Assembly (NCBI GenBank): GCA_046497275.1
Contig: JAWOFX010000054.1
Location: 60,001-92,000 of the forward strand
Length of the DNA stretch: 32,000 nt
Direction of reading: 5' to 3'
Origin: Promethearchaeia archaeon
Lineage (GTDB): Archaea; Asgardarchaeota; Lokiarchaeia; Sigyniarchaeales; SOKP01
The notes beneath the pieces were generated by a model. It ran no database searches, had not been told where the DNA came from, and worked only from the letters and a program-made list of their open reading frames with translations. Shown here in pieces: positions 5,202-26,056 of this stretch (positions are counted from its first letter, which is position 1; the number at the start of each line of letters is the position of its first letter). A program made the position numbers and the translations under genes.

Positions 5202-5765
5202 ATGTCAAATCAAGATTATAGCCAAGTTTTTAAATGCCCTGAATGTGGGACTGTTGGATCTATATATCTTTTAAAGGTAGATGGTGAAGATATAATAATA
5301 AAGCAGAGATGTCCCACACATGGAGGAAGAAGTTTTAAAATTTTATTAAGAAATTTAGACAAATATCTTCCTTATATAAATGACTCAATTTTCAGGTGCT
5401 ATGAATGTGGTAAAAAAGCCGATTTAGACCGACTTATCTTTACTGGACCATTTGCAAAATTAAGTGTTATATGTCCAACACACCAAAATAAGTTACCAGA
5501 CCAAAAAATTTGGAGTTTAGTTTATATGCTTGCAAAAGATATGATAACAAAGGAAGATGATGGCAACAATTTAGAAAAAGAAGACAACATTGAAGCCACC
5601 TCTGAGATAATAAAAGATAATGAAGAAATTATTAATACAGAAACAACTGAAAATCAAGAAATTATAAACAATTCTCTCTCTGATATGAAATTTTGTCCAA
5701 ATTGTGGTACGAAAATAACGGGGGAAGAAATTTATTGTGCTGGATGCGGCACCAAATTAATTTAG
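5202..5765 (+). CDS. Cys/His-rich metal-binding protein (paralogue 2)
   Basis: CPEC...CPTH, CYEC...CPTH, acidic linker, CPNC...CAGC. Confidence 0.78.
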   Translation: MSNQDYSQVFKCPECGTVGSIYLLKVDGEDIIIKQRCPTHGGRSFKILLRNLDKYLPYINDSIFRCYECGKKADLDRLIFTGPFAKLSVICPTHQNKLPDQKIWSLVYMLAKDMITKEDDGNNLEKEDNIEATSEIIKDNEEIINTETTENQEIINNSLSDMKFCPNCGTKITGEEIYCAGCGTKLI

Positions 5766-5905
5766 TCTATTTATATAAGAAATGTTATAAAAAATCAACT
5801 TTTTATTTTCATTTTTCTATAAACTGATAATATTTTTTAAAGAAAAACATTCATTAGATCATAAAGCTCTTAAAAAATTAGCATTAATCTTAAAAAGAAG
5901 AAATA

Positions 5906-7066
5906 ATGGATAACAATATAAAAGATCTAATTGATGAGGTGGAAAAGGAGAATGCTACACGTGCTCAAATGGAACATGAGAATAAATATCTTAAGGAAGA
6001 AATAAAGAGATTAAAGTTTACCATAAAAGAGCAGAGTATGATAATTGAGGATCAAGAAAAGAAAATTAGAAAGCAGAACATTATTCCCGATGATATTGAA
6101 ATCTTAAAGGAGATTATTCAAAAGCAACGAGAAAACTTGGAGAAAAAGAGCAGAAATATAGATAATCTTAAATTTAATATAGATAATTTAATAAATGAGC
6201 TCCAAGAACTAAGAAGGGAATCATCAGATAAGGTTTCTAAGGATGATTTGATTAGTGCTAACAGTAGAATTGAGGAATTAAAAGATATAAATTCTAAACA
6301 ATCAATAGAAATTAGTAAATTAAAATCTGAAATCGCTATTTTAGAAGAAAGACCCCAGCAAGATTTAATAAAGGATCAATTAACTAAGGCGGAAACAAGA
6401 ATAAAACAATTAGAAAGTAGAAATGAAGATTTAATTGCTCAAATAAACTATTTTCAAGATGAATTAGATAAATCCACTCTAACAATCAAATCAATTAACC
6501 AAACGAGAAATCAATTGTTAGATGAAATTCAATCATATAAAGAAAAGATAAAAGATTTGAACTCCGAAATTGAGTCAATGAAATCAGAAGTGAAAACAAG
6601 AGAACTCAAAAATAAGGAATTAGGAGAAATGAAAGAAAATTTAAATGAAAGAATAGAGAAATTAATTGACGTTTCTAAAGACTTTAAATATAAGTCTAAT
6701 TATAATCTTAGTTATCACCCTCTTGACAGATATTCTCCAATTCAATTAATAGAAAGATCCCTCAATTTAATGAATGAAGAAAATAAACAAAAAATAATTA
6801 ATTCTTTAATATCCGATTTATCTCATTCTAATTTAGAAATCAGAACTCTCGCGGTAATCATTTTGGGTATAGTGCGTTCTGATGCAGCTTTTAATGCATT
6901 AATAAAATTGAAGAATGATGATAATTGGATTGTTCGATATTATCTAGTTAAAACTTTAAGTAGATATGGTCAAAGGGAAGGATTAAGGGAAATAATGGTA
7001 GAGTTTTTAAAAGATAAAGATATCGATGTAAGGGAATTAGCCTTTTCTTACTTTAATAAGTTTTAA
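5906..7066 (+). CDS. Long coiled-coil protein with C-terminal HEAT-like repeats
   Basis: E/K/Q-rich heptad character over ~260 aa, then IRTLAVIILG, WIVRYYLVKTLSRYG and DVRELA helical repeats. Confidence 0.7.
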   Translation: MDNNIKDLIDEVEKENATRAQMEHENKYLKEEIKRLKFTIKEQSMIIEDQEKKIRKQNIIPDDIEILKEIIQKQRENLEKKSRNIDNLKFNIDNLINELQELRRESSDKVSKDDLISANSRIEELKDINSKQSIEISKLKSEIAILEERPQQDLIKDQLTKAETRIKQLESRNEDLIAQINYFQDELDKSTLTIKSINQTRNQLLDEIQSYKEKIKDLNSEIESMKSEVKTRELKNKELGEMKENLNERIEKLIDVSKDFKYKSNYNLSYHPLDRYSPIQLIERSLNLMNEENKQKIINSLISDLSHSNLEIRTLAVIILGIVRSDAAFNALIKLKNDDNWIVRYYLVKTLSRYGQREGLREIMVEFLKDKDIDVRELAFSYFNKF

Positions 7067-7158
7067 TTATCTAACATATAAAAAAAATTTTAAATAAAAT
7101 TTGATTATTTTATAAAAAAAGGCCAAAAATTTTTTTAAATTTTGGTTGTTCAAAATTA

Positions 7159-7434
7159 ATGATTATGAGAGATTTTCCAACCAATCGATGGAATTGGTCA
7201 GATGAGTTAGGAAAGTGGGTATATGCTGAAAGGGATCAAGATGGTAATATTAAATATACCTATCAAGTTAAACCTCCAAAGGAGTTTCTAATCCTAACTG
7301 AAAAATTAGAAGAGATGAATAAAAAATTAATGATCGCTAAAGATGCAGAAGAGAAAATGGAGATTTTTGAACAATTAATGGAAATTTCTAAGGAAATGAA
7401 CAACATGCGCAAAAAAAAGAATGATTCATCTTAG
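7159..7434 (+). CDS. Small hypothetical protein (Trp-rich N-terminus, helical C-terminus)
   Basis: 91-aa ORF with protein-like composition between AT-rich spacers; no recognised motif. Confidence 0.6.
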   Translation: MIMRDFPTNRWNWSDELGKWVYAERDQDGNIKYTYQVKPPKEFLILTEKLEEMNKKLMIAKDAEEKMEIFEQLMEISKEMNNMRKKKNDSS

Positions 7435-7620
7435 CCTTTCTGTTTTTTTAAGCAATATATGAGTTAAATAAATCATAATAATATAAAATTATGAGATATA
7501 AATTAATTTCTTAAAATCGTTATAAAATCCTTATAGATTTAATTGAGAATTATTAAATTGAAAGATAAATATTTAATTTATTTAAAACTCTACCTCAACT
7601 AATAATATTAGGTTATTCAA

Positions 7621-8823: not shown

Positions 8824-9630
8824 TTATTGAGAATTATCTTGTGTTTGCTTCGAATAGTAATTAATTATATCGTTTAACCAATTAACAATATTCTTCTTAG
8901 ACAGAAATTCTATATTATTTCTCAATCTTATTAATTCTGTAAGAATGAAAGAGGGATCTAATGGTCTCTTATGTTCTACAATTTCGAATAAGTACTCATT
9001 TGTTTTGTTAATCAAATTTTTAACATCTTCCGAATTCACTTTGAAATCTAAATACTCCATACTCTCAAGTTTAGAGATTAGATTGATTAAATTAAAAATT
9101 GCACTCGTTTCATTTGATTTAAACCAATTCTCTAAATGAAAATTTGTGGTAGGAAATTCAAATTTAGGAAGGACTTCTTCATAAGAATTATTGATTTTAA
9201 TTATTGATTTAATGTTTTTGAATAGGAAAGAGGGACACCACGCATATAGTTGCTTAATTACATTAAAATCTTCCATTTCGGAACTAAAAATTATTTTATG
9301 ATTTGTTTTTAAGAATCCAAAGGGAATAAGACATAAATAAAAATTTTCATTCGAAATAAAAAATTTTCTTGGTATTGTAAAATTTAACTGATGTTCTACG
9401 TCAATTGGATTATTCAATAAATCAAAATTTAGAGAATCAGAAATATTATATATATAAGAAAGCAACCCTTCAAATCCATTTATCTCTATTCTTAATAAGA
9501 ATTTTTTTGAGGATATGTCCAATTCTGAACTTGATTTCGATTTAAACTTCAAATTAAGTATTAAATGAGAATAATTTTCTAAATTTGGAAATAACCAAGG
9601 AACACTATTAGATATATCTTTAGCTATCAT
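8824..9630 (-). CDS. Hypothetical protein
   Basis: 268-aa ORF in very AT-rich DNA; no recognisable motif. Confidence 0.55.
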   Translation of the reverse strand: MIAKDISNSVPWLFPNLENYSHLILNLKFKSKSSSELDISSKKFLLRIEINGFEGLLSYIYNISDSLNFDLLNNPIDVEHQLNFTIPRKFFISNENFYLCLIPFGFLKTNHKIIFSSEMEDFNVIKQLYAWCPSFLFKNIKSIIKINNSYEEVLPKFEFPTTNFHLENWFKSNETSAIFNLINLISKLESMEYLDFKVNSEDVKNLINKTNEYLFEIVEHKRPLDPSFILTELIRLRNNIEFLSKKNIVNWLNDIINYYSKQTQDNSQ

Positions 9631-9882: not shown

Positions 9883-10761
9883 CTACAAACCTAAAGGTGC
9901 TATATCTCTCAATCTGGTTCTATGGTATTTTAATCCGATATCATCTGGATTAGCTCCCATAGCCAAAGCATATAATTCCGTTAAATATATCACTGGAATG
10001 TTATAGTCTTGCTCAAATTCTTTTGAAAGATTTCTTTGGTTTGTATCAAACTGTTGAAAACAAGCTGGACAGTTAACCACGATTACATCGGCACCGGCTT
10101 TGATAATACTGTCTAATTTACGTTTAAGATTATGCATCCCAACTTCTTCGTATGCATTAGAAACAGCAGAACCACAGCATAATACTTCTTCTTCATAATC
10201 AATCACAGTAGCGCCTGTTGCAGCACTTAATTCTTTGAGAGTTTTTGGTCTCATAGGATCATCATTAGTTTCCATCCATTCATGTGGTCTCATATAATGA
10301 CACCCGGGATGACACGCAACTTTAAGTCCTTCGAGAGGTTTAGTTATTGCTGATTTAATTTTATCAATACCAATATCTTTCTTTAATACATCGACAAAAT
10401 GCCTCACATCAATAGATCCTTTGTATTCCTTCCCTATCTTCGCGAGTTCTCCATTAATATGTTCTTTTTTGATACTATCGTGTTCTAACTGATGTTGAAC
10501 TCCCCTAAGAGTATTAGTACATCCATTACATAAGGAAATTATGTCCTTATTCTCTTCTTCAGCTAAGCAGATATTTCTTGCTCCTATAGCAAGCCACCCT
10601 TCATCATCAAAACTCTTGAATCCTGTTGGGTCTGGGCAACAAGTAAAGGGAGCTTCTGAAGTTTCGATTCCTAATTTATCAAAAACATATCGAGTAGAAG
10701 CTTCGATGAATGGAATTCTATTACCAATTGTGCATCCTTCAAACATTTTATATTCTGTCAT
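9883..10761 (-). CDS. hdrB: Heterodisulfide reductase subunit B (two CCG domains)
   Basis: EGC...TCCP...CNGC and PGCH...LCCGS...CPAC motifs. ATG at 10761 is preferred over the track's GTG at 10773 because GGTGA just upstream looks like an RBS. Confidence 0.9.
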   Translation of the reverse strand: MTEYKMFEGCTIGNRIPFIEASTRYVFDKLGIETSEAPFTCCPDPTGFKSFDDEGWLAIGARNICLAEEENKDIISLCNGCTNTLRGVQHQLEHDSIKKEHINGELAKIGKEYKGSIDVRHFVDVLKKDIGIDKIKSAITKPLEGLKVACHPGCHYMRPHEWMETNDDPMRPKTLKELSAATGATVIDYEEEVLCCGSAVSNAYEEVGMHNLKRKLDSIIKAGADVIVVNCPACFQQFDTNQRNLSKEFEQDYNIPVIYLTELYALAMGANPDDIGLKYHRTRLRDIAPLGL

Positions 10762-10765
10762 TTGG

Positions 10766-11278
10766 TTATTCACCTTCCTTTAATTTTTGATTCACATTCA
10801 TATTATTCAGAAGTGTTTTCAATTCTTCCGTATCTGGAGCGATAATATCTGGTAAGCCCATTCCTTCTCTTCTTCTTTCAATAGCGGATTGTGAGGGAAT
10901 TGCCTTACCGTAATCATACACCGCTTTCGCTTGTTGATATATAAATTCGGGTCCGTTTCCTTTAGCGATACTTCTATTTTTTAGAAATGTGAAAATCTCT
11001 GTAAGTTCAATATTTTGTGGGCATACTTCATCACATGTATCGCATACAGTGCAACCCCAAATAGCGATTTCATCAGCATTAAAAATACTATCCTCATAAC
11101 CCAATAAAGCATTTAGAATATTACTTCTAGGATTATATCTGTATTGATAGAATTCATCAGTCACATATGATACAGGACAATTATCTGTACATCTATTGCA
11201 TTGATAACAGTATTTTATTACATCAGATCCTTGATGATAATCCATAACTTGTTTCCTAAATTCAAAATCTATAACCAT
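10766..11278 (-). CDS. hdrC: Heterodisulfide reductase subunit C (2x[4Fe-4S])
   Basis: CYQCNRCTDNCP and CTVCDTCDEVCP ferredoxin motifs; immediately upstream of hdrB. Confidence 0.9.
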   Translation of the reverse strand: MVIDFEFRKQVMDYHQGSDVIKYCYQCNRCTDNCPVSYVTDEFYQYRYNPRSNILNALLGYEDSIFNADEIAIWGCTVCDTCDEVCPQNIELTEIFTFLKNRSIAKGNGPEFIYQQAKAVYDYGKAIPSQSAIERRREGMGLPDIIAPDTEELKTLLNNMNVNQKLKEGE

Positions 11279-11331: not shown

Positions 11332-11404
11332 GTTGGTTATAACCCTTGCATGGGCAGTCATATCCAATCTATTATTTGTATTGGATATTTCATCCTAAAC
11401 CAAC
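11332..11404 (-). promoter_or_regulatory. SECIS-like RNA hairpin (eukaryote/Loki type) for vhuU
   Basis: Minus strand: AUGA(11393-11390), A, AUAUCCAAU(11388-11380), loop ACAAAUAAUAG, AUUGGAUAU(11368-11360), GA(11359-11358). Perfect 9-bp upper stem, AAA 12 nt after AUGA, and a possible 7-bp lower stem GUUGGUU(11404-11398)/AACCAAC(11338-11332). Confidence 0.8.
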
Positions 11405-11542
11405 GTTTAATTTACGCGAGTAAACCTCTTTGCCCTCCTCATCAACAACAGTGATGTGGGCGGCACATGATAGTCAGCAATCATAACAACGCACTATCAT
11501 TTCTAAAAGATTTACTACTCCTTCGTCTATATCCTCACTCAT
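11390..11542 (-). CDS. vhuU: Selenocysteine-containing small hydrogenase subunit VhuU (C-terminal Ni-binding peptide of a split large subunit)
   Basis: Manual translation: MSEDIDEGVVNLLEMIVRCYDC(U)LSCAAHITVVDEEGKEVYSRKLNVGLG*. The in-frame TGA at 11476-11474 occupies the first Cys position of the DPCxxCxxH motif that VhuA lacks. GTGAT RBS upstream and SECIS-like hairpin downstream. Confidence 0.92.
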
Positions 11543-11591: not shown

Positions 11592-12896
11592 TTAATCTAT
11601 CCATGGATCTGGTAAATTCAGACCTTCTAAGGCTTTATCTTCAAAAACTTGTTTTGCTGTATGCATCAATGATTTTTCGATTCCTGCGATATTGTGATTC
11701 GTGGCAACTAACAGATTTAATTTCTTACAAATACCTTCTGCATCAGACCAAATATGATACAAGAGTAAGCCTCGTGGAGCTTCTGTGACACCTACCCCAT
11801 TTCCTTCTCTTGGTTCCACATCTAAGGTTTTGCAATCAGGATTCACAATATCAGGATCCTCTAACAAGGTTTTTATTTGTTCGATTGCTTCTACAGTTTC
11901 TATTAATCGCGCCCAATGATATGCGAATGTGTGATGAGAAACTTCTCCGACTTTGTCTCTAAATTGTTGCAAAGCATCTTGAGCTAAGGGAGTTGCCATT
12001 CTATCCGCAGCGTTGATCATTGCCAGACAATTTGCGCGGTATATTCCCTCTGGGTACCCAGCTGGTTTATAATACATGTGGGTTGCATATGAATGTTCGG
12101 GAATATGCTCACCTAAGGCATCAAGATAATTCTGTACCTTATAGTCAGTTTTCTCTCCTTCAGGTGAAACTATACGGATATCACCTTCATAGATATCATG
12201 AACGCCATTTTTAGCCATTCCCAAATAATATGTAGGAACGACTCCTACATTAGCCACAACATCCCAATAGTCTTCGACAACCTTTAAGCCTATATCGACT
12301 GTTTTCTTGGTAAATTCAATTTGTTCATCGACTTGTTTTAAAAATTTGTCCCGTGCATCTTCATCCATTGGTTTCTTCATCCCACCAACGATTGCAGAAA
12401 TCGGATGCACAGACTTTCCACCAATTTCTTGACAAAGTTTTTGTCCGAAATCCATCATCTTTAACGCCATTTTGCCAACATCGGGCATCTTGTTTATAAC
12501 ATGAACAACGTTGCGTTTTGCAGGATCAGCAAACGGTCCTAACAAGAAATCTGGTGCTGCCAATGCATAGAAATGTAATATATGAGAAGCATACTGCTTT
12601 GCGTTCATTATTAATTGTCGCAATTTATAGGCTGGTTCCGGAATCTCCACACCCCACGCATCTTCTACTGCTTTTGTTGGAGTAATGTGATGGGGAATAG
12701 GACAAATCCCACAAATTCTTGGCGTGATTCGGGGTACATGTTCACAATACCGTCCCTCTACAAATTTTTCAAAAAATCGAGTAGATGTGATATTGAATTG
12801 AACATCCTTAACCTTTCCATCATCGTCAATAACAACATGTAAATCCCCGTGACCCTCTAATCGGGTGACTGGTTCAACTTCTATTTCCTTAACCAT
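11592..12896 (-). CDS. vhuA: F420-non-reducing (group 3c) hydrogenase large subunit, split form lacking the C-terminal CxxC
   Basis: EPVTRLEGHG, RFFEKF, PRICGICP (N-terminal Ni motif), TEAPRG and VATNHN. Ends EGLNLPDPWID with no DPCxxCxxH. Confidence 0.92.
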   Translation of the reverse strand: MVKEIEVEPVTRLEGHGDLHVVIDDDGKVKDVQFNITSTRFFEKFVEGRYCEHVPRITPRICGICPIPHHITPTKAVEDAWGVEIPEPAYKLRQLIMNAKQYASHILHFYALAAPDFLLGPFADPAKRNVVHVINKMPDVGKMALKMMDFGQKLCQEIGGKSVHPISAIVGGMKKPMDEDARDKFLKQVDEQIEFTKKTVDIGLKVVEDYWDVVANVGVVPTYYLGMAKNGVHDIYEGDIRIVSPEGEKTDYKVQNYLDALGEHIPEHSYATHMYYKPAGYPEGIYRANCLAMINAADRMATPLAQDALQQFRDKVGEVSHHTFAYHWARLIETVEAIEQIKTLLEDPDIVNPDCKTLDVEPREGNGVGVTEAPRGLLLYHIWSDAEGICKKLNLLVATNHNIAGIEKSLMHTAKQVFEDKALEGLNLPDPWID

Positions 12897-12897
12897 T

Positions 12898-14229
12898 TTA
12901 TTTATGCACCTCTTCTGTAAATTGTTTATTCTTTGCTAAGGTGAATTTCTCAAAGGTACCAATATGATCTTTTACTTGAGCTAGCAATTCATCCTTAGAT
13001 AAAGCAACATTAAATCCTTTAATTGCTATATCGGCAAATCTTGATGCTTGATCCGCAACCCATTCTGTTTGACCATAACAGCCAGTGCAGGGAGCGTTGA
13101 CCTTAATACACATACCACCGCATCCTGCTCTTGTGACTGGTCCCATACAAATATATCCTTGTTCAATGAAGCATTCTTCTTGGTTAGGGAGTCCTTCATA
13201 ATCTCTTTTTACTTTTGTCATAGTGGATTTGCTACCAATAATTCTGGGACACGTATCGCAGACATTAGATATTTCATGGAAGTCTGGATTATTTTTTAGG
13301 TATCCCAATAGGTTCGTGGCTACTTGTTTTGCTTTATCATTTAACTGTGTTAAAGGTGTTTCTGCTTCTCCTTTATTTTTTATTTGCTTCAATATGTCCG
13401 CTGAGAGATCGAATCCTGCCATTAATGGAACATTCAAATATAAAGATAAGAATTCATACATGGCTTTCTTCTCTCCCGTAGTAATATTAGAAAGATCTCT
13501 GGTTTTCTCAATTAGTTTATCTGCTCGTACATGTGCTGTTTTTGATGGACCAAAACATCCTACACATGGACTACCATTGCCAGGACATTTTAATGAGCAT
13601 CCAACACTTGTAATCGGTCCGAAACAGAGAGTCCCCTTATCGAGAATGCATCCCTCTTCATTTAATGGACATTGAGTACAGAATGAATATTCTTCGTTTG
13701 GAAAATCCTTTTGTCCAAGTAAGAATTGGACGGCACTCACAATTTGCTCTGGTTTTGGAGGACATCCAGAAATATAGGCATCTACATCAATGATATCATC
13801 TACCACAACCACGTATTCTCTAAATCCTGGGACGTGTTCTGTTGGCTCTTTTGGATTTTCATCAGTGATGCTTTCGGCTTCATGGAATTTTCTATCAACT
13901 AATTCTTGCTTTTTCCATTCATTGGCTAAGCCATGAACATTGCCATAGCAAGCGCAACTGCCGAAATTAATTATTAATTGACATTTTTTCCTCATTAGTT
14001 CTACACTTTCGTAATCCTCATTTGTTCGAACAGAACCTTCAATGAACCCAACTAAGACTTCCCCGTCTTGACGTGCTTTTAATGAATCAAGTTTATAGTC
14101 AACAACTGCTGGCCAGTAAACAAATTCCAGTGCTGGAAGAATATCTAACAATCCTAAATGTGCATTCAATAAGGACTGATGACATCCCCAACAATCACTG
14201 AGTTGCATGAAAGCTACTTTTACTGCCAT
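12898..14229 (-). CDS. vhuG: Group 3c hydrogenase small subunit, extended by a duplicated 8-Cys Fe-S module
   Basis: Proximal ligands C13/C16 (SDCWGC), C92 (GSCA) and C156 (SGCPP); two Cys-rich C-terminal modules (aa 184-225 and 324-384); 443 aa. Confidence 0.88.
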   Translation of the reverse strand: MAVKVAFMQLSDCWGCHQSLLNAHLGLLDILPALEFVYWPAVVDYKLDSLKARQDGEVLVGFIEGSVRTNEDYESVELMRKKCQLIINFGSCACYGNVHGLANEWKKQELVDRKFHEAESITDENPKEPTEHVPGFREYVVVVDDIIDVDAYISGCPPKPEQIVSAVQFLLGQKDFPNEEYSFCTQCPLNEEGCILDKGTLCFGPITSVGCSLKCPGNGSPCVGCFGPSKTAHVRADKLIEKTRDLSNITTGEKKAMYEFLSLYLNVPLMAGFDLSADILKQIKNKGEAETPLTQLNDKAKQVATNLLGYLKNNPDFHEISNVCDTCPRIIGSKSTMTKVKRDYEGLPNQEECFIEQGYICMGPVTRAGCGGMCIKVNAPCTGCYGQTEWVADQASRFADIAIKGFNVALSKDELLAQVKDHIGTFEKFTLAKNKQFTEEVHK

Positions 14230-14620
14230 TTTTCATCATTTAAAATTTGTTTTTTTGTTTTAATTTTAATTTTTAATTTCCTAGTTAATTGCAAATAGGA
14301 TGTTTATAATGTATTAAGCAATTTATTAAAAAATTACTCCTATATTATCGAAAAATTACCCTAGCACTTAAGAAAGGAATAATTATTCATAAAAATACTA
14401 ATAAACTTTTTCAAATAGTGAATCAATATTCAAATGTTCATTAATATGCATATTTGAGTAAATAGAGAAAAGAGTTTGGTTGTAAAGCAATAATCTAATA
14501 TTTCGATCTTTAATGTCGTGAATTCAATTTCACTACTTTATAATTATAAGAAATTTTGAAAATATAAAAATGATTTGAATTTCGATGAATAATCAGAGTC
14601 TTTAAGACTTCTTGGAAATT

Positions 14621-15715
14621 TCATTCATCATTGTATTTATAATATATACTACACGATCCTTCTTGCGAGACCATACAAGGACCAATGGGATTGAGGGGAG
14701 TACATACTTTTCTAAAAAGTTTACATTCATAAGGATAAATTTTCCCTGTCATAACAAGATGGCATGAACACCCCAGAGGAATATCTTGAGCATTTTTAAT
14801 AGAAATATCAAACTTTTTATCAGCATCAAACTTTGAATATTGATCTCGTATTTCTAACCCTCCGTCCATAATCCTTCCAATGCCTCGCCATGGAGATGAG
14901 ACAGATTTGAATACATCTGAAATGATTGATTGTGCAATTGTATTGCCTTCTGGTTTCACGACTCGTTTGTATTCGTTTATTGTTTTATGATCTTGATTCT
15001 TGATTTGGTTTAAAAGTATTAAAATTGAAAGGAGAACATCATTAGGTTCAAAACCCGCTACCACATTCGGAACTTTATACGAATCAGAAAATAATTTGAA
15101 TGGTTTGAGCCCAATTATTGTCGCAACATGACCCGGAGAAATAAACCCATCTATATTTAATCTATCAATACTAATTAAAAGTTCTAAGGCGGCAGGAATG
15201 AGTTTATGTGCGCAAATAACAGAAAAGTTGGAAGGAGGAGTGTTTTTTATCTCATATCCAATTAAAGGAACCGTTGTTTCAAATCCTATAGCAAAAAATA
15301 TTACTTCTTTATTAGGATTTTCTCTGGCAATTTTAACTGCATCATTTGGTCCATAGACAATTCTAACATCAGCACCTTCAGCTTTTAATTCTGCCAATGA
15401 TATATTTGTAGCCGGAACTCGTATCATATCCCCGAAAGAAGTTATGATTGTATCATCTCTCTTTCCCAATTGGATTGCTTTATCTATATCTGCTGCGGGA
15501 CATACGCAAACTGGACATCCGGGGCCAGAAACTATCTCTAAATCCTCAGGAAGAAGTGATCTAAGTCCAAATTTAGATATTGTGTGTTCGTGTGTTCCAC
15601 ACACATGCATTAGCTTTATAGTTTTACCTAAAGAATTCATATGAGAATTAATCAAATTCACGATCTTTTTTGTGAAATCTTTATTTCTTAAAACTTGTAG
15701 ACTAGGAATTTCCAT
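14621..15715 (-). CDS. hypD: Hydrogenase maturation protein HypD
   Basis: MHVCGTHE, GPGCPVC, GFETT, PGHV and C-terminal GPCMVSQEGSC. Confidence 0.95.
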   Translation of the reverse strand: MEIPSLQVLRNKDFTKKIVNLINSHMNSLGKTIKLMHVCGTHEHTISKFGLRSLLPEDLEIVSGPGCPVCVCPAADIDKAIQLGKRDDTIITSFGDMIRVPATNISLAELKAEGADVRIVYGPNDAVKIARENPNKEVIFFAIGFETTVPLIGYEIKNTPPSNFSVICAHKLIPAALELLISIDRLNIDGFISPGHVATIIGLKPFKLFSDSYKVPNVVAGFEPNDVLLSILILLNQIKNQDHKTINEYKRVVKPEGNTIAQSIISDVFKSVSSPWRGIGRIMDGGLEIRDQYSKFDADKKFDISIKNAQDIPLGCSCHLVMTGKIYPYECKLFRKVCTPLNPIGPCMVSQEGSCSIYYKYNDE

Positions 15716-23199: not shown

Positions 23200-23362
23200 T
23201 AAACTATACTTCTTTCTTTTTTTTAAATATTAATCTAACCGCTATTCTATAAATATAGATAGATTAAAATAATTAAAAATCGCCATATTAGGAATTTATA
23301 TATATTTCAAAAATAAATATAATTAAAACCAAATCTCACAAGTTTTTGTGATCATTTTTCCC

Positions 23363-24673
23363 ATGAAAGAATCCCCTCCTTTGGACGAAATAATTGAGAT
23401 AATTAGAGAAGAACAAGATTTAGATTCAGTAATCGGTCTTATTTGTTTAAATTATATTATCATACATAGTCCAGTTGATGAGATTTTGCTCTTTATTGAA
23501 AGAAAAGGTATTAAAATTCCAATTAAAAGGGTATACACAAGATTAGAACTACTAAGATATATTTGTCTTCATTATTATGAGCAGTTTAATACTAATGAAC
23601 AGATTCAAGATCTTTATGATAATTGTCTCGATTATATCGGTTTTGAAATGACTAGTGATAAAGATCTCAAATTTTATCTATATAAGAATGATTTTATTGC
23701 TAAGCAAGACCTCATTGATGCCTTTAGTGATTGGGCAGCAGATTTAGGGATTACGGTATATGACGCAAGATCTGTAGATGATGAATATAAAATAGATCTT
23801 TATTTGGTCAGAAGGACTCCTTTGCTCAGGAGTGAAACTGTGTTCGTCAGAACGGGCCATGAAATTAATCAAAAAAAATATGAAAAAGTCTTAGAACTCA
23901 TTAAAAAATCCTCGAAATTAGCAACATGGAACGTATTTTTAACCACTCCACTCGCGATATATAAAATTGGATTAAGAAAATTCATAAAAGATATGGAACG
24001 GGAGAATGTATGGTTATATATAATAGATCCAATAAATAAGCAAATTTATGGGATTACCAAGGGAAAAAAATCTAAAGATTACGATTCTGATTTAAGAGAT
24101 GAATATATAGAAAAATTGCCACGAGAACCTATTAGGGCTCAAACACGATTGAAAGAGATTTCAACCTTTCAATTTGAAGAGGGTAAATCTTATTCTCCAA
24201 AAAATTTTTACATGTTCGATTTGCTTGATGTATTAGAACATGATAAATTTGTGAGTGCACCTAAAAAAGAATCAACTTATTCCAAAATATTCCGAAATTT
24301 AATGATCATGGAAAGAAAATCTGGGATCCCCGTTTTTTCATATTCTAGTGAACGAGTGAAGGATCAAATATTGTTTTCTGGATTTTTATCAGCTATGGAT
24401 GATTTTGTTTCTCAAATAGGAGAAACTACAGCATTAAAAGAAATTAATTATAAAGGATTTTATGTCCAAGCCGCTTATGGAAAATCTATCAAATTAGCTT
24501 TATTTCTTTCAGAAGCGGCTGATAAGAGCTTAAAGGAACGAGTTGATTTCTTGCTCAATTACTTAGAAAAAAAATATAAAAAAGAAATTGAGCAATTTAG
24601 AAAAACTGGTGAGACTTCGATTTTCAAAGATAAAGAGATCCTCCCGATCGTCAAGCAATTTCTGAATATCTAA
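23363..24673 (+). CDS. Unknown N-terminal/central domains fused to a C-terminal longin-like domain (paralogue 1)
   Basis: C-terminal NLMIMERKSGIPVFSY...LFSGFLSAMDDFVSQ...EINYKGFYV...LALFL resembles archaeal longin/sigma-like domains as recalled. The track's GTG start (23348) coincides with a GTGATC RBS, so the ATG at 23363 is preferred. Confidence 0.65.
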   Translation: MKESPPLDEIIEIIREEQDLDSVIGLICLNYIIIHSPVDEILLFIERKGIKIPIKRVYTRLELLRYICLHYYEQFNTNEQIQDLYDNCLDYIGFEMTSDKDLKFYLYKNDFIAKQDLIDAFSDWAADLGITVYDARSVDDEYKIDLYLVRRTPLLRSETVFVRTGHEINQKKYEKVLELIKKSSKLATWNVFLTTPLAIYKIGLRKFIKDMERENVWLYIIDPINKQIYGITKGKKSKDYDSDLRDEYIEKLPREPIRAQTRLKEISTFQFEEGKSYSPKNFYMFDLLDVLEHDKFVSAPKKESTYSKIFRNLMIMERKSGIPVFSYSSERVKDQILFSGFLSAMDDFVSQIGETTALKEINYKGFYVQAAYGKSIKLALFLSEAADKSLKERVDFLLNYLEKKYKKEIEQFRKTGETSIFKDKEILPIVKQFLNI

Positions 24674-24757: not shown

Positions 24758-26056
24758 ATGGAACCTTTAAATAATAATTTCCAAGAATTAAAGGATAATT
24801 TTGAAAAGAAACATGGATTATTATGCCTAAACTGCTTATTTAATAAGAGTAGATTTGAAGAAATCGAACAATTTATTGAAAAACATAATATACCTACTTT
24901 AGAATCTGATGTTAAACCTTCAAAGTATGACTTGCTTAAAAGTATTGCGTCTTATTTTTATCAAAAATACAAAGATAATGCAGAAATACAATCAAATTAT
25001 AAAGATCCTCTCTATTATATTGGGAATAAAGTACTTGAAGATGAAAAATTAAAACATTACCTCACACGTTTCGATTTTTTCGCACGGCAAGATCTCATTG
25101 ATGCCTTTAGCGATTGGTGTGCTGATTTGGGCATAAGCGTATATGACGCGTCAAAGATTAACAATAAGAATATTGATCTTTATCTTATTAGACGTACACC
25201 TCTGTTGAGGAGTGAAGCTGCATTTGTTAGAACTGGTGCTCAACTTGATGAAGAAAATTATAAAAATACCTTTTATTTGATCAATGAAGCATCAAAATTA
25301 GCTACTTGGACTGTATTTGTCACGACACCGTTGGGCGTATATAATATAGGATTAGAACGTATGGTCTCTGATATGGAAAAACTTAATACTTGGTTATATG
25401 TTATTAATCCACTACACAAAGAGATTCATGGAATTACAAAGGGGGGAAAAAGTAAGGATTACGACTCTGATTTAAGAGACAATTTTATTGAAAAATTACC
25501 TAAGGAACCCATAAGAGCACCCTCAAAAGTAATTGAAATTTCAAAATATGAATTTGATGATGATATTTCCTATAAACCAAAGAATTATTCCTTATTTGAA
25601 ATATTTACTGAAGAAGAAATGCAGGAAATTCAAGAAGAGAGTAAGAGTGAACATAAATATAGGAACATTTTCCGTAATTTAATGATTATAGATAAAGATG
25701 CGGGATTACCCTTAATTTCCTATACAAGCGAAGAAAAACCTTTAGATAAAGTGTTGATATCAGGTTTTCTCACTGCAATGGATAATTTTGTATCTGAGAT
25801 TGGAGGAGAATCTGCTATGAAAGATATAAATTATAAAGGTTTGTATGTTCAAGCATCTTATGGGAAAAATATTAAAGCAGCATTATTTCTTTCTGATCCC
25901 GCGGATAAAAGTTTGAAAGAGCGATTAAATTATTTAGTTAATTATATTGAAACCCATTATAATAATGAAATACAAGAATTCAGAAAAACAGGAGACACAT
26001 CAAATTTTGATGAAAAAAAGATAAATCCATTAATTATTGAAATTCTTGATATGTAA
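24758..26056 (+). CDS. Longin-like fusion protein (paralogue 2)
   Basis: Shares long near-identical blocks with the upstream gene (QDLIDAFSDW.ADLG, IDLYL.RRTPLLRSE, KSKDYDSDLRD, IFRNLMI, SGFL.AMD.FVS). Confidence 0.65.
   Translation: MEPLNNNFQELKDNFEKKHGLLCLNCLFNKSRFEEIEQFIEKHNIPTLESDVKPSKYDLLKSIASYFYQKYKDNAEIQSNYKDPLYYIGNKVLEDEKLKHYLTRFDFFARQDLIDAFSDWCADLGISVYDASKINNKNIDLYLIRRTPLLRSEAAFVRTGAQLDEENYKNTFYLINEASKLATWTVFVTTPLGVYNIGLERMVSDMEKLNTWLYVINPLHKEIHGITKGGKSKDYDSDLRDNFIEKLPKEPIRAPSKVIEISKYEFDDDISYKPKNYSLFEIFTEEEMQEIQEESKSEHKYRNIFRNLMIIDKDAGLPLISYTSEEKPLDKVLISGFLTAMDNFVSEIGGESAMKDINYKGLYVQASYGKNIKAALFLSDPADKSLKERLNYLVNYIETHYNNEIQEFRKTGDTSNFDEKKINPLIIEILDM

Follow-up and report, generated by a model that had tools for sequence, protein, structure and literature searches.

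A hydrogenase small subunit with a duplicated cluster-binding module in Lokiarchaeia, and its association with dedicated HdrC'B' genes

Here, we report a [NiFeSe]-hydrogenase small subunit from a Lokiarchaeial genome in which the 8-Cys module for the medial and distal [4Fe-4S] clusters occurs twice. The gene, designated vhuG-long, was analyzed within a stretch of 32,000 nucleotides (hereafter the window), where it is the first of a tight set of five genes in the order small subunit, large subunit, vhuU, hdrC', hdrB' (Table 1). Judging from its 20 conserved Cys ligands, the protein should carry five [4Fe-4S] clusters; MvhG has three (PMC5861303). A previous reading, made from the sequence only, had proposed up to five clusters, and this agrees with the conserved ligands, the occupancy of the sites being a prediction. 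A literature search lacking most subscription journals returned no description of the doubled module.

Table 1. Coordinates in the window of the hydrogenase genes and of the parts of the small subunit
Feature	Coordinates	Strand	Description
vhuG-long	12898..14229	minus	[NiFeSe]-hydrogenase small subunit, 443 aa, 20 conserved cluster-ligand Cys (ORF and translation)
N-terminal NuoB-like domain, residues 1-183	13681..14229	minus	proximal-cluster Cys 13, 16, 92, 156; aligns to MvhG 2-189
Module 1, residues 184-225	13555..13680	minus	inserted 8-Cys module; two extra [4Fe-4S] clusters predicted
Linker, residues 226-323	13261..13554	minus	Cys-free, helical, belongs to the inserted domain
Module 2, residues 324-384	13078..13260	minus	canonical MvhG-type medial/distal 8-Cys module
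C-terminal tail, residues 385-443	12901..13077	minus	MvhG-tail equivalent; aligns to MvhG 246-290
vhuA	11592..12896	minus	large subunit, 434 aa, without C-terminal Ni-binding motif; Pfam NiFeSe_Hases
vhuU	11390..11542	minus	50 codons, in-frame TGA (Sec) at 11474-11476, RCYDCULSCAAH (ORF list, TGA read as U)
hdrC'	10766..11278	minus	170-aa 2x[4Fe-4S] subunit; Pfam Fer4_8; eight invariant Cys
hdrB'	9883..10773	minus	296 aa, two CCG domains; Pfam CCG, E 7e-30, two stretches

Domain layout of the small subunit

Residues 13-167 of the protein matched Pfam Oxidored_q6 (PF01058, NuoB-like; E 6.4e-24), and its best solved relatives were MvhG/VhuG (E 2e-54). The 443 residues include 22 Cys in total. 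Eight of them make up module 1 (residues 184, 187, 194, 202, 211, 215, 222 and 225) and eight more module 2 (324, 327, 353, 361, 370, 374, 381 and 384), exactly where the sequence-only reading had placed two such modules, both within 13072-13680; the Cys-free linker that it had put at about 95 residues was also found, as a stretch of 98 residues without Cys between 225 and 324. Cys spacing is the same in the two modules (2, x, 7, 8, 3, 6, 2) except for the gap between the second and the third Cys: in module 2 it spans 25 residues, 19 more than the 6 of module 1. The spacing is of the hydrogenase small-subunit type and not that of the CxxCxxCxxxCP Fer4 motifs, and no Fer4 family of Pfam matched the small subunit at E 0.01 or better. 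When module 1 with the linker was compared to module 2 with the tail by profile-profile alignment (hhalign), the probability was 99.2% (E 7.4e-20, 75 columns), and the alignment extended approximately 25 residues beyond the last Cys, into the next helix. The two modules thus go back to the duplication of a cluster-binding domain, and their similarity is not due to chance.

The solved MvhG/VhuG chains (5ODC chain E, 9SFI chain I and 9SW2 chain E; group 3c) have 288, 299 and 308 aa, consistent with the standard form of about 300 aa, one module and three clusters that had been assumed for comparison (PMC5861303). They share with vhuG-long the NuoB-like N-domain with four proximal Cys, the 8-Cys medial/distal module with its KRDYEG loop, and the C-terminal tail, but their alignment to it is split into two segments (residues 3-192 and 321-432 of vhuG-long). 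MvhG 174-245, KRDYEG loop included, corresponds to module 2 position by position, and the Cys of this module are invariant in the canonical short forms too. An AF2 model built from a 125-row alignment was confident throughout (pLDDT 93.4, pTM 0.88); an earlier run on 44 close homologues, with pLDDT 61, was discarded. On superposition with MvhG 5odc_E using VIA-align, 290 of 298 residues were matched (Z 31.8, rmsd 2.5 A), spanning model residues 3-443, so that some 140 residues are left over as an insert. The approximately 300 residues that superpose on MvhG come from the N-domain, module 2 and the tail, which thus reproduce its whole fold, and residues 184-323 (module 1 and linker) therefore constitute an inserted domain. 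According to the model, a second copy of the cluster-binding C-terminal domain is therefore not appended at an end of the protein; it is placed between the NuoB-like domain and the canonical module. The linker, for which neither alignment nor superposition gave a counterpart in solved MvhG, is predicted to form four helices (236-244, 251-264, 279-286 and 298-312).

Among solved structures, module 1 was best matched by SHI delta, from the soluble hydrogenase I of Pyrococcus furiosus (group 3b; 9E1J, 9NEZ), with E 4e-11 versus 2.5e-7 for MvhG. It has the short-loop form of group 3b subunits, with the same short distance between the second and third Cys, and module 2 has the 3c-type loop. Module 1 could derive either from a group 3b-like acquisition or from an internal duplication, its roughly 50 alignable residues being too short for a tree; the closer match to SHI delta may perhaps only reflect the missing 19-residue loop. 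SHI delta differs from vhuG-long in having only one module, with three clusters in total, and in delivering its electrons to a beta/gamma NADPH module, not to Hdr subunits.

The small subunit also has an extra Cys, C94, two residues past the proximal ligand C92 (window 13948-13956 for residues 92-94; GSCACYG). It is kept in 115 of the 121 close homologues described below and in most of the diverse long forms, and solved MvhG has Ala-Phe at this site (gtcaafgg). C94 could modify the proximal cluster.

Conservation and distribution of the long form

In 121 close homologues (66-91% identity), all 16 module Cys were invariant, and the proximal ligands C13, C16, C92 and C156 were invariant or nearly so. 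An exhaustive search of 1.84 billion representatives identified 12 full-length long-form clusters (427-487 aa, 39-54% identity), as well as canonical forms of 290-340 aa without the insert. All 20 ligand Cys were kept in 170 of 213 long forms, and in approximately 36 others (about one sixth) C211, C215, C222 and C225 alone were missing, so that four clusters are predicted for these. The remaining ligands of module 1 (C184, C187, C194 and C202) were invariant in every long form, down to 36% identity, and all Cys of module 2 were invariant as well. Degeneracy of one module in orthologues, which the sequence-only reading had named as evidence against a functional duplication, thus affects only this minority, and the window's own orthologue group keeps every Cys. 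The four- and five-cluster patterns did not correlate with the presence of the large subunit or of hdrA/mvhD, both being found in several contexts.

These patterns bear on the possibility that the insert is off the main electron path, either as a structural or oligomerisation domain or as a redox buffer or sensor with a protective or regulatory role, the canonical three clusters being the wire. It would be compatible with the long forms in which half of the eight Cys of module 1 are gone although the gene is kept, and with the lower conservation of module 1 and the linker in the close homologues (63% and 53% identity to the window protein) compared to module 2 (83%). However, the first four Cys of module 1 never vary among long forms, and the window's orthologue group keeps all eight without exception; a domain of purely structural function would have no need for such Cys. 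Overall, we consider a position off the electron path improbable.

The duplication might also be an assembly artefact, or a decaying pseudo-domain restricted to this contig, and nothing was found in favour of either. An RNA-library contig from another study spans 12790-14305, and thereby the whole gene, and does not differ from it at any position. In DNA contigs from a third study, 12790-13445 shows 0 differences and 13446-14700 shows 2; the only one inside the gene is G>A at 13548, in the third position of a valine codon. Since independent contigs reproduce vhuG-long, an assembly artefact is excluded. In addition, more than 200 long forms occur in independent assemblies, the closed genomes CP070831.1 and CP042905.2 among them, and the AF2 model is confident over the entire protein. 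We give this explanation practically no weight.

Every named member of the long form belongs to an Asgard archaeon. Among 301 species-representative genomes of the phylum, full-length matches were confined to the class of the window, where they were found in 72 of 77 genomes (by family, 64/68, 7/7, 1/1 and 0/1); the remaining 224 genomes gave matches to the N-domain only, in frames of about 305 aa (best E 1e-21 to 1e-59). Genomes commonly have two to four long-form paralogues. The window's genome has two, the second one on contig C100 (49% identical, with all 16 Cys). In a FastTree phylogeny computed without the insert columns, all long forms fell on one side of a branch with support 91. Four-cluster forms were basal or scattered in this tree, whose rooting is uncertain; an ancestor with the full 8-Cys module and later losses would fit the homology of the modules better.

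The cultured Promethearchaeum syntrophicum MK-D1 also encodes a long form (DSAG12_03954, 450 aa), which is of the four-cluster type and stands in the gene order G-hdrC'-hdrB'-large subunit (G denoting the small-subunit gene). The enzyme was termed MvhADG-HdrABC and described as the sole hydrogenase of this organism (PMC7015854). In MK-D1, tusA, a sulfur-transporter gene, two dsrE and dsrH precede the long-form operon on the same strand (CP042905.2, positions 5255-7595 of locus L084), which hints at a protein persulfide or another sulfur-relay species as the substrate of HdrC'B'. No TusA or DsrE genes were found in the window.

Gene context of long and short forms

The five genes of the window are closely packed, vhuA beginning 2 bp downstream of vhuG-long, and RNA-library contigs bridge this junction. 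Among solved chains, the large subunit is nearest to VhuA/MvhA (9sfi_g, E 6e-130; MvhA 5odc_F, E 1e-106), and its assignment to group 3c is putative; a 2024 preprint (10.1101/2024.07.04.601786) defined the new Asgard groups 3e-3l from large subunits only. The Sec-containing VhuU that follows belongs to a described family (PMC4989117), and its gene is conserved beside vhuA in related loci. In its motif RCYDCULSC (window 11465-11488) a Cys replaces the usual Pro before Sec, with another Cys three residues upstream, and the motif is kept in paralogous and orthologous copies of vhuU (78-84% identity, tblastn). Upstream of the operon are hypD and hypE, with hypF divergent. Downstream of hdrB', a 268-aa ORF (8824-9630, minus strand) had no Pfam match, and was not counted in the operon, whose RNA contigs end before it. 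The adjacent ORFs 23348-24673 (441 aa) and 24758-26056 (432 aa) had no Pfam match either, and a scan of the window with Rfam gathering thresholds found nothing.

Between 57 and 97% of the operon's words were present in 12 metatranscriptome runs from three salt-lake studies. RNA contigs from three runs, one per study, cover approximately 9.85-14.3 kb and almost nothing outside, and the coverage by a DNA run continues evenly into the flanks. The five genes may thus be expressed as a unit, the contigs being no proof of a single transcript.

The vhuA of the window and its copy on contig C100 (C100:69061-70359, the same as L011:9061-10359) share 96% of their protein and 87% of their DNA sequence. 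The partners have diverged more: the HdrC' proteins are 56% and the HdrB' proteins 62% identical, and the small subunits have the 49% given above. Two vhuA copies in another genome are 83% identical. These comparisons suggest that the large-subunit gene has undergone gene conversion or was recently duplicated anew. The paralogous operon on C100, of the order G-A-C'-B'-U (A, large subunit; U, vhuU), has its own vhuU after hdrB' (L011:7390-7539), which was missed by the ORF list and detected by tblastn only.

We compared 27 unique long-form loci with 12 short-form loci from other Asgard classes. The long forms were found in the arrangements G-A-U-C'-B' (3 loci), G-A-C'-B'-U (2), G-C'-B'-A-U (3) and G-C'-B' without a large subunit (4); divergent, head-to-head, from hdrC-B-A-mvhD (6) or co-oriented behind such a cluster (1); followed by an HdrC-like ferredoxin (2); as orphans with no hdr gene nearby (5); and at a contig end (1). 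Hence hdrC'-hdrB' belongs to the operon in 12 of 27 loci, and an hdrC-type gene lies within 3 kb of the long G in 20. No long-form locus had mvhD directly upstream (0/27), in contrast to every short-form locus (12/12, in the order mvhD-G-A(-U)); this difference corresponds to about one evolutionary split, between one class and two families of other classes, and its counts are thus not statistically independent. The HdrC' beside a long G and the HdrC of hdrCBA-mvhD clusters are two sequence types, about 28% identical. In 19 of 27 loci, no large-subunit gene was present in the gene cluster or in the flanks covered. Paralogues without a nearby large subunit (L017, L052-L055; L016, L019, L056, L066) are orphans or have hdrC'-hdrB' only, and either share a large subunit encoded elsewhere or work outside hydrogenase.

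The sequence-only reading had supposed that the duplication could compensate for a missing VhuD/HdrA. The window's operon has no FlpD gene, and in this the linkage survey agreed with it, the long form being tied to hdrC'-hdrB' in place of an upstream mvhD. An absence at the level of the genome was rejected: we found 12 FlpD/MvhD matches elsewhere in the window's genome, four of which (contigs C124, C171, C109 and C24) have two in-frame TGA, as expected for Sec-VhuD, and hdrA-vhuD pairs elsewhere in Lokiarchaeota are always tandem (PMC4989117). Paralogues with the same duplication also adjoin hdrC-hdrB-hdrA-mvhD clusters in the six head-to-head loci. Compensation, as it had been stated, is therefore wrong.

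The same observations raise the possibility that the five-cluster subunit still works in a classical complex, bifurcating or confurcating, whose HdrA and VhuD come from other loci. In that case the insert would serve as another exit or as a docking platform, on a branch to ferredoxin, polyferredoxin or a further Hdr module, and would not replace MvhD. Besides the FlpD/MvhD matches, the tandem hdrA-vhuD pairs and the seven loci beside hdrC-B-A-mvhD (six divergent, one co-oriented), this reading has in its favour that MK-D1, which produces H2 and has a single hydrogenase with a small subunit of the long form, needs a ferredoxin-linked route (PMC7015854). It is opposed by the absence of mvhD directly upstream of any long form, by the HdrC'B' of the operon being of another sequence type than the HdrCB travelling with HdrA, and by the three loci with hdrC'B' between the small- and large-subunit genes. 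We regard a classical complex as a serious, if somewhat doubtful, candidate.

Electron route and related systems

The best explanation, to which we give an even chance, is that of a five-cluster small subunit in which the extra clusters would extend the relay beyond the distal cluster to the dedicated HdrC'B'. In all small subunits the chain leaving the N-domain first reaches the CxxC of the distal cluster. In the long form, C184 and C187 occupy this position in the sequence, and the insert leads the chain back to C324 and C327, the canonical distal ligands; with this entry and return, both ends of the insert adjoin the distal cluster, as far as chain topology tells. A linear wire could thus run from the proximal to the medial and distal clusters, then to the C184 cluster, the C211 cluster and HdrC'B'. 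The cluster of C184, C187, C194 and C202 would be the obligatory next relay and that of C211, C215, C222 and C225 a dispensable terminal one. Together they would occupy the place that the separate [2Fe-2S] adaptor MvhD/VhuD has in methanogen enzymes, and electrons would pass to the HdrC'-HdrB' pair of the same operon. We infer the occupancy of the clusters, their order and the contact with HdrC'. Given an invariant first half of module 1, a second half that can be lost, and the exchange of mvhD for hdrC'B', a linear extension is the most economical reading. The sequence-only reading had also envisaged an extended or branched wire, and an extended one is compatible with the data, module 1 being well folded in the AF2 model (pLDDT 93) with its Cys conserved, in contrast to the compensation that had been attached to it.

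Several points count against the linear extension to HdrC'B'. The 12 FlpD domains and the six head-to-head loci leave room for the classical HdrA/MvhD complex. Five long-form genes are orphans without a nearby hdr gene. Finally, a direct route from H2 to a disulfide conserves no energy and cannot run to H2 evolution, which is the direction proposed for the cultured MK-D1 (PMC7015854).

Compared to MvhG/VhuG, the long form has an insert of 8-Cys module plus four helices, amounting to 443 aa versus 288-308, and the window does not have the mvhDGA/vhuDGAU gene order, its operon carrying hdrC'-hdrB' and no adjacent mvhD. The insert resembles MvhD/VhuD, the [2Fe-2S] adaptor between MvhG and HdrA, in adding, with about 140 residues, a redox module beyond the distal cluster, and would take over its role. 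In contrast to this adaptor, it is a second copy of the 2x[4Fe-4S] module of the small subunit rather than a FlpD fold, and its position is internal, not terminal. Bacterial proteins of about 483 aa in the ESM Atlas, mostly from Myxococcota, fuse PF01058 with PF02662 (MvhD/FlpD), indicating that the attachment of an adaptor to the small subunit is a recurring solution.

HdrD of HdrDE and the HdrA-independent CCG-domain reductases combine an HdrC-like ferredoxin with an HdrB-like CCG part in a simple wire, without flavin bifurcation, and HdrD may serve as a working analogy for VhuGAU-HdrC'B'. HdrD is a single fused, membrane-associated protein fed by cytochrome b; in contrast, C' and B' are here separate and soluble, and the donor is putative. 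A further step would be that the long small subunit and HdrC'B' are a self-contained module needing neither HdrA nor MvhD. Joined by VhuAU, this module would act as a soluble H2:disulfide (or persulfide) oxidoreductase of the non-bifurcating kind, and the copies without a large subunit nearby would be scaffolds of hydrogenase origin, now serving as stand-alone electron-input subunits for Hdr-type reductases. We find this rather unlikely.

The hydrogen metabolism of Lokiarchaeia is central to models of eukaryote origin based on syntrophy, and its enzyme is routinely annotated as the methanogen-type MvhADG-HdrABC. Our results show that this class departs from it in the small subunit, in the gene order and in the associated HdrC/HdrB: there are one or two extra predicted [4Fe-4S] clusters, mvhD is outside the operon, and a dedicated hdrC'B' is inside. 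This architecture alters which electron paths, direct, bifurcating or branched, are plausible. One family member is found in a cultured organism, and in-situ RNA data are available for the operon of the window. If the reading as a self-contained module is true, the MvhADG-HdrABC assumed for the hydrogen metabolism of Lokiarchaeia and MK-D1 would be a different machine.
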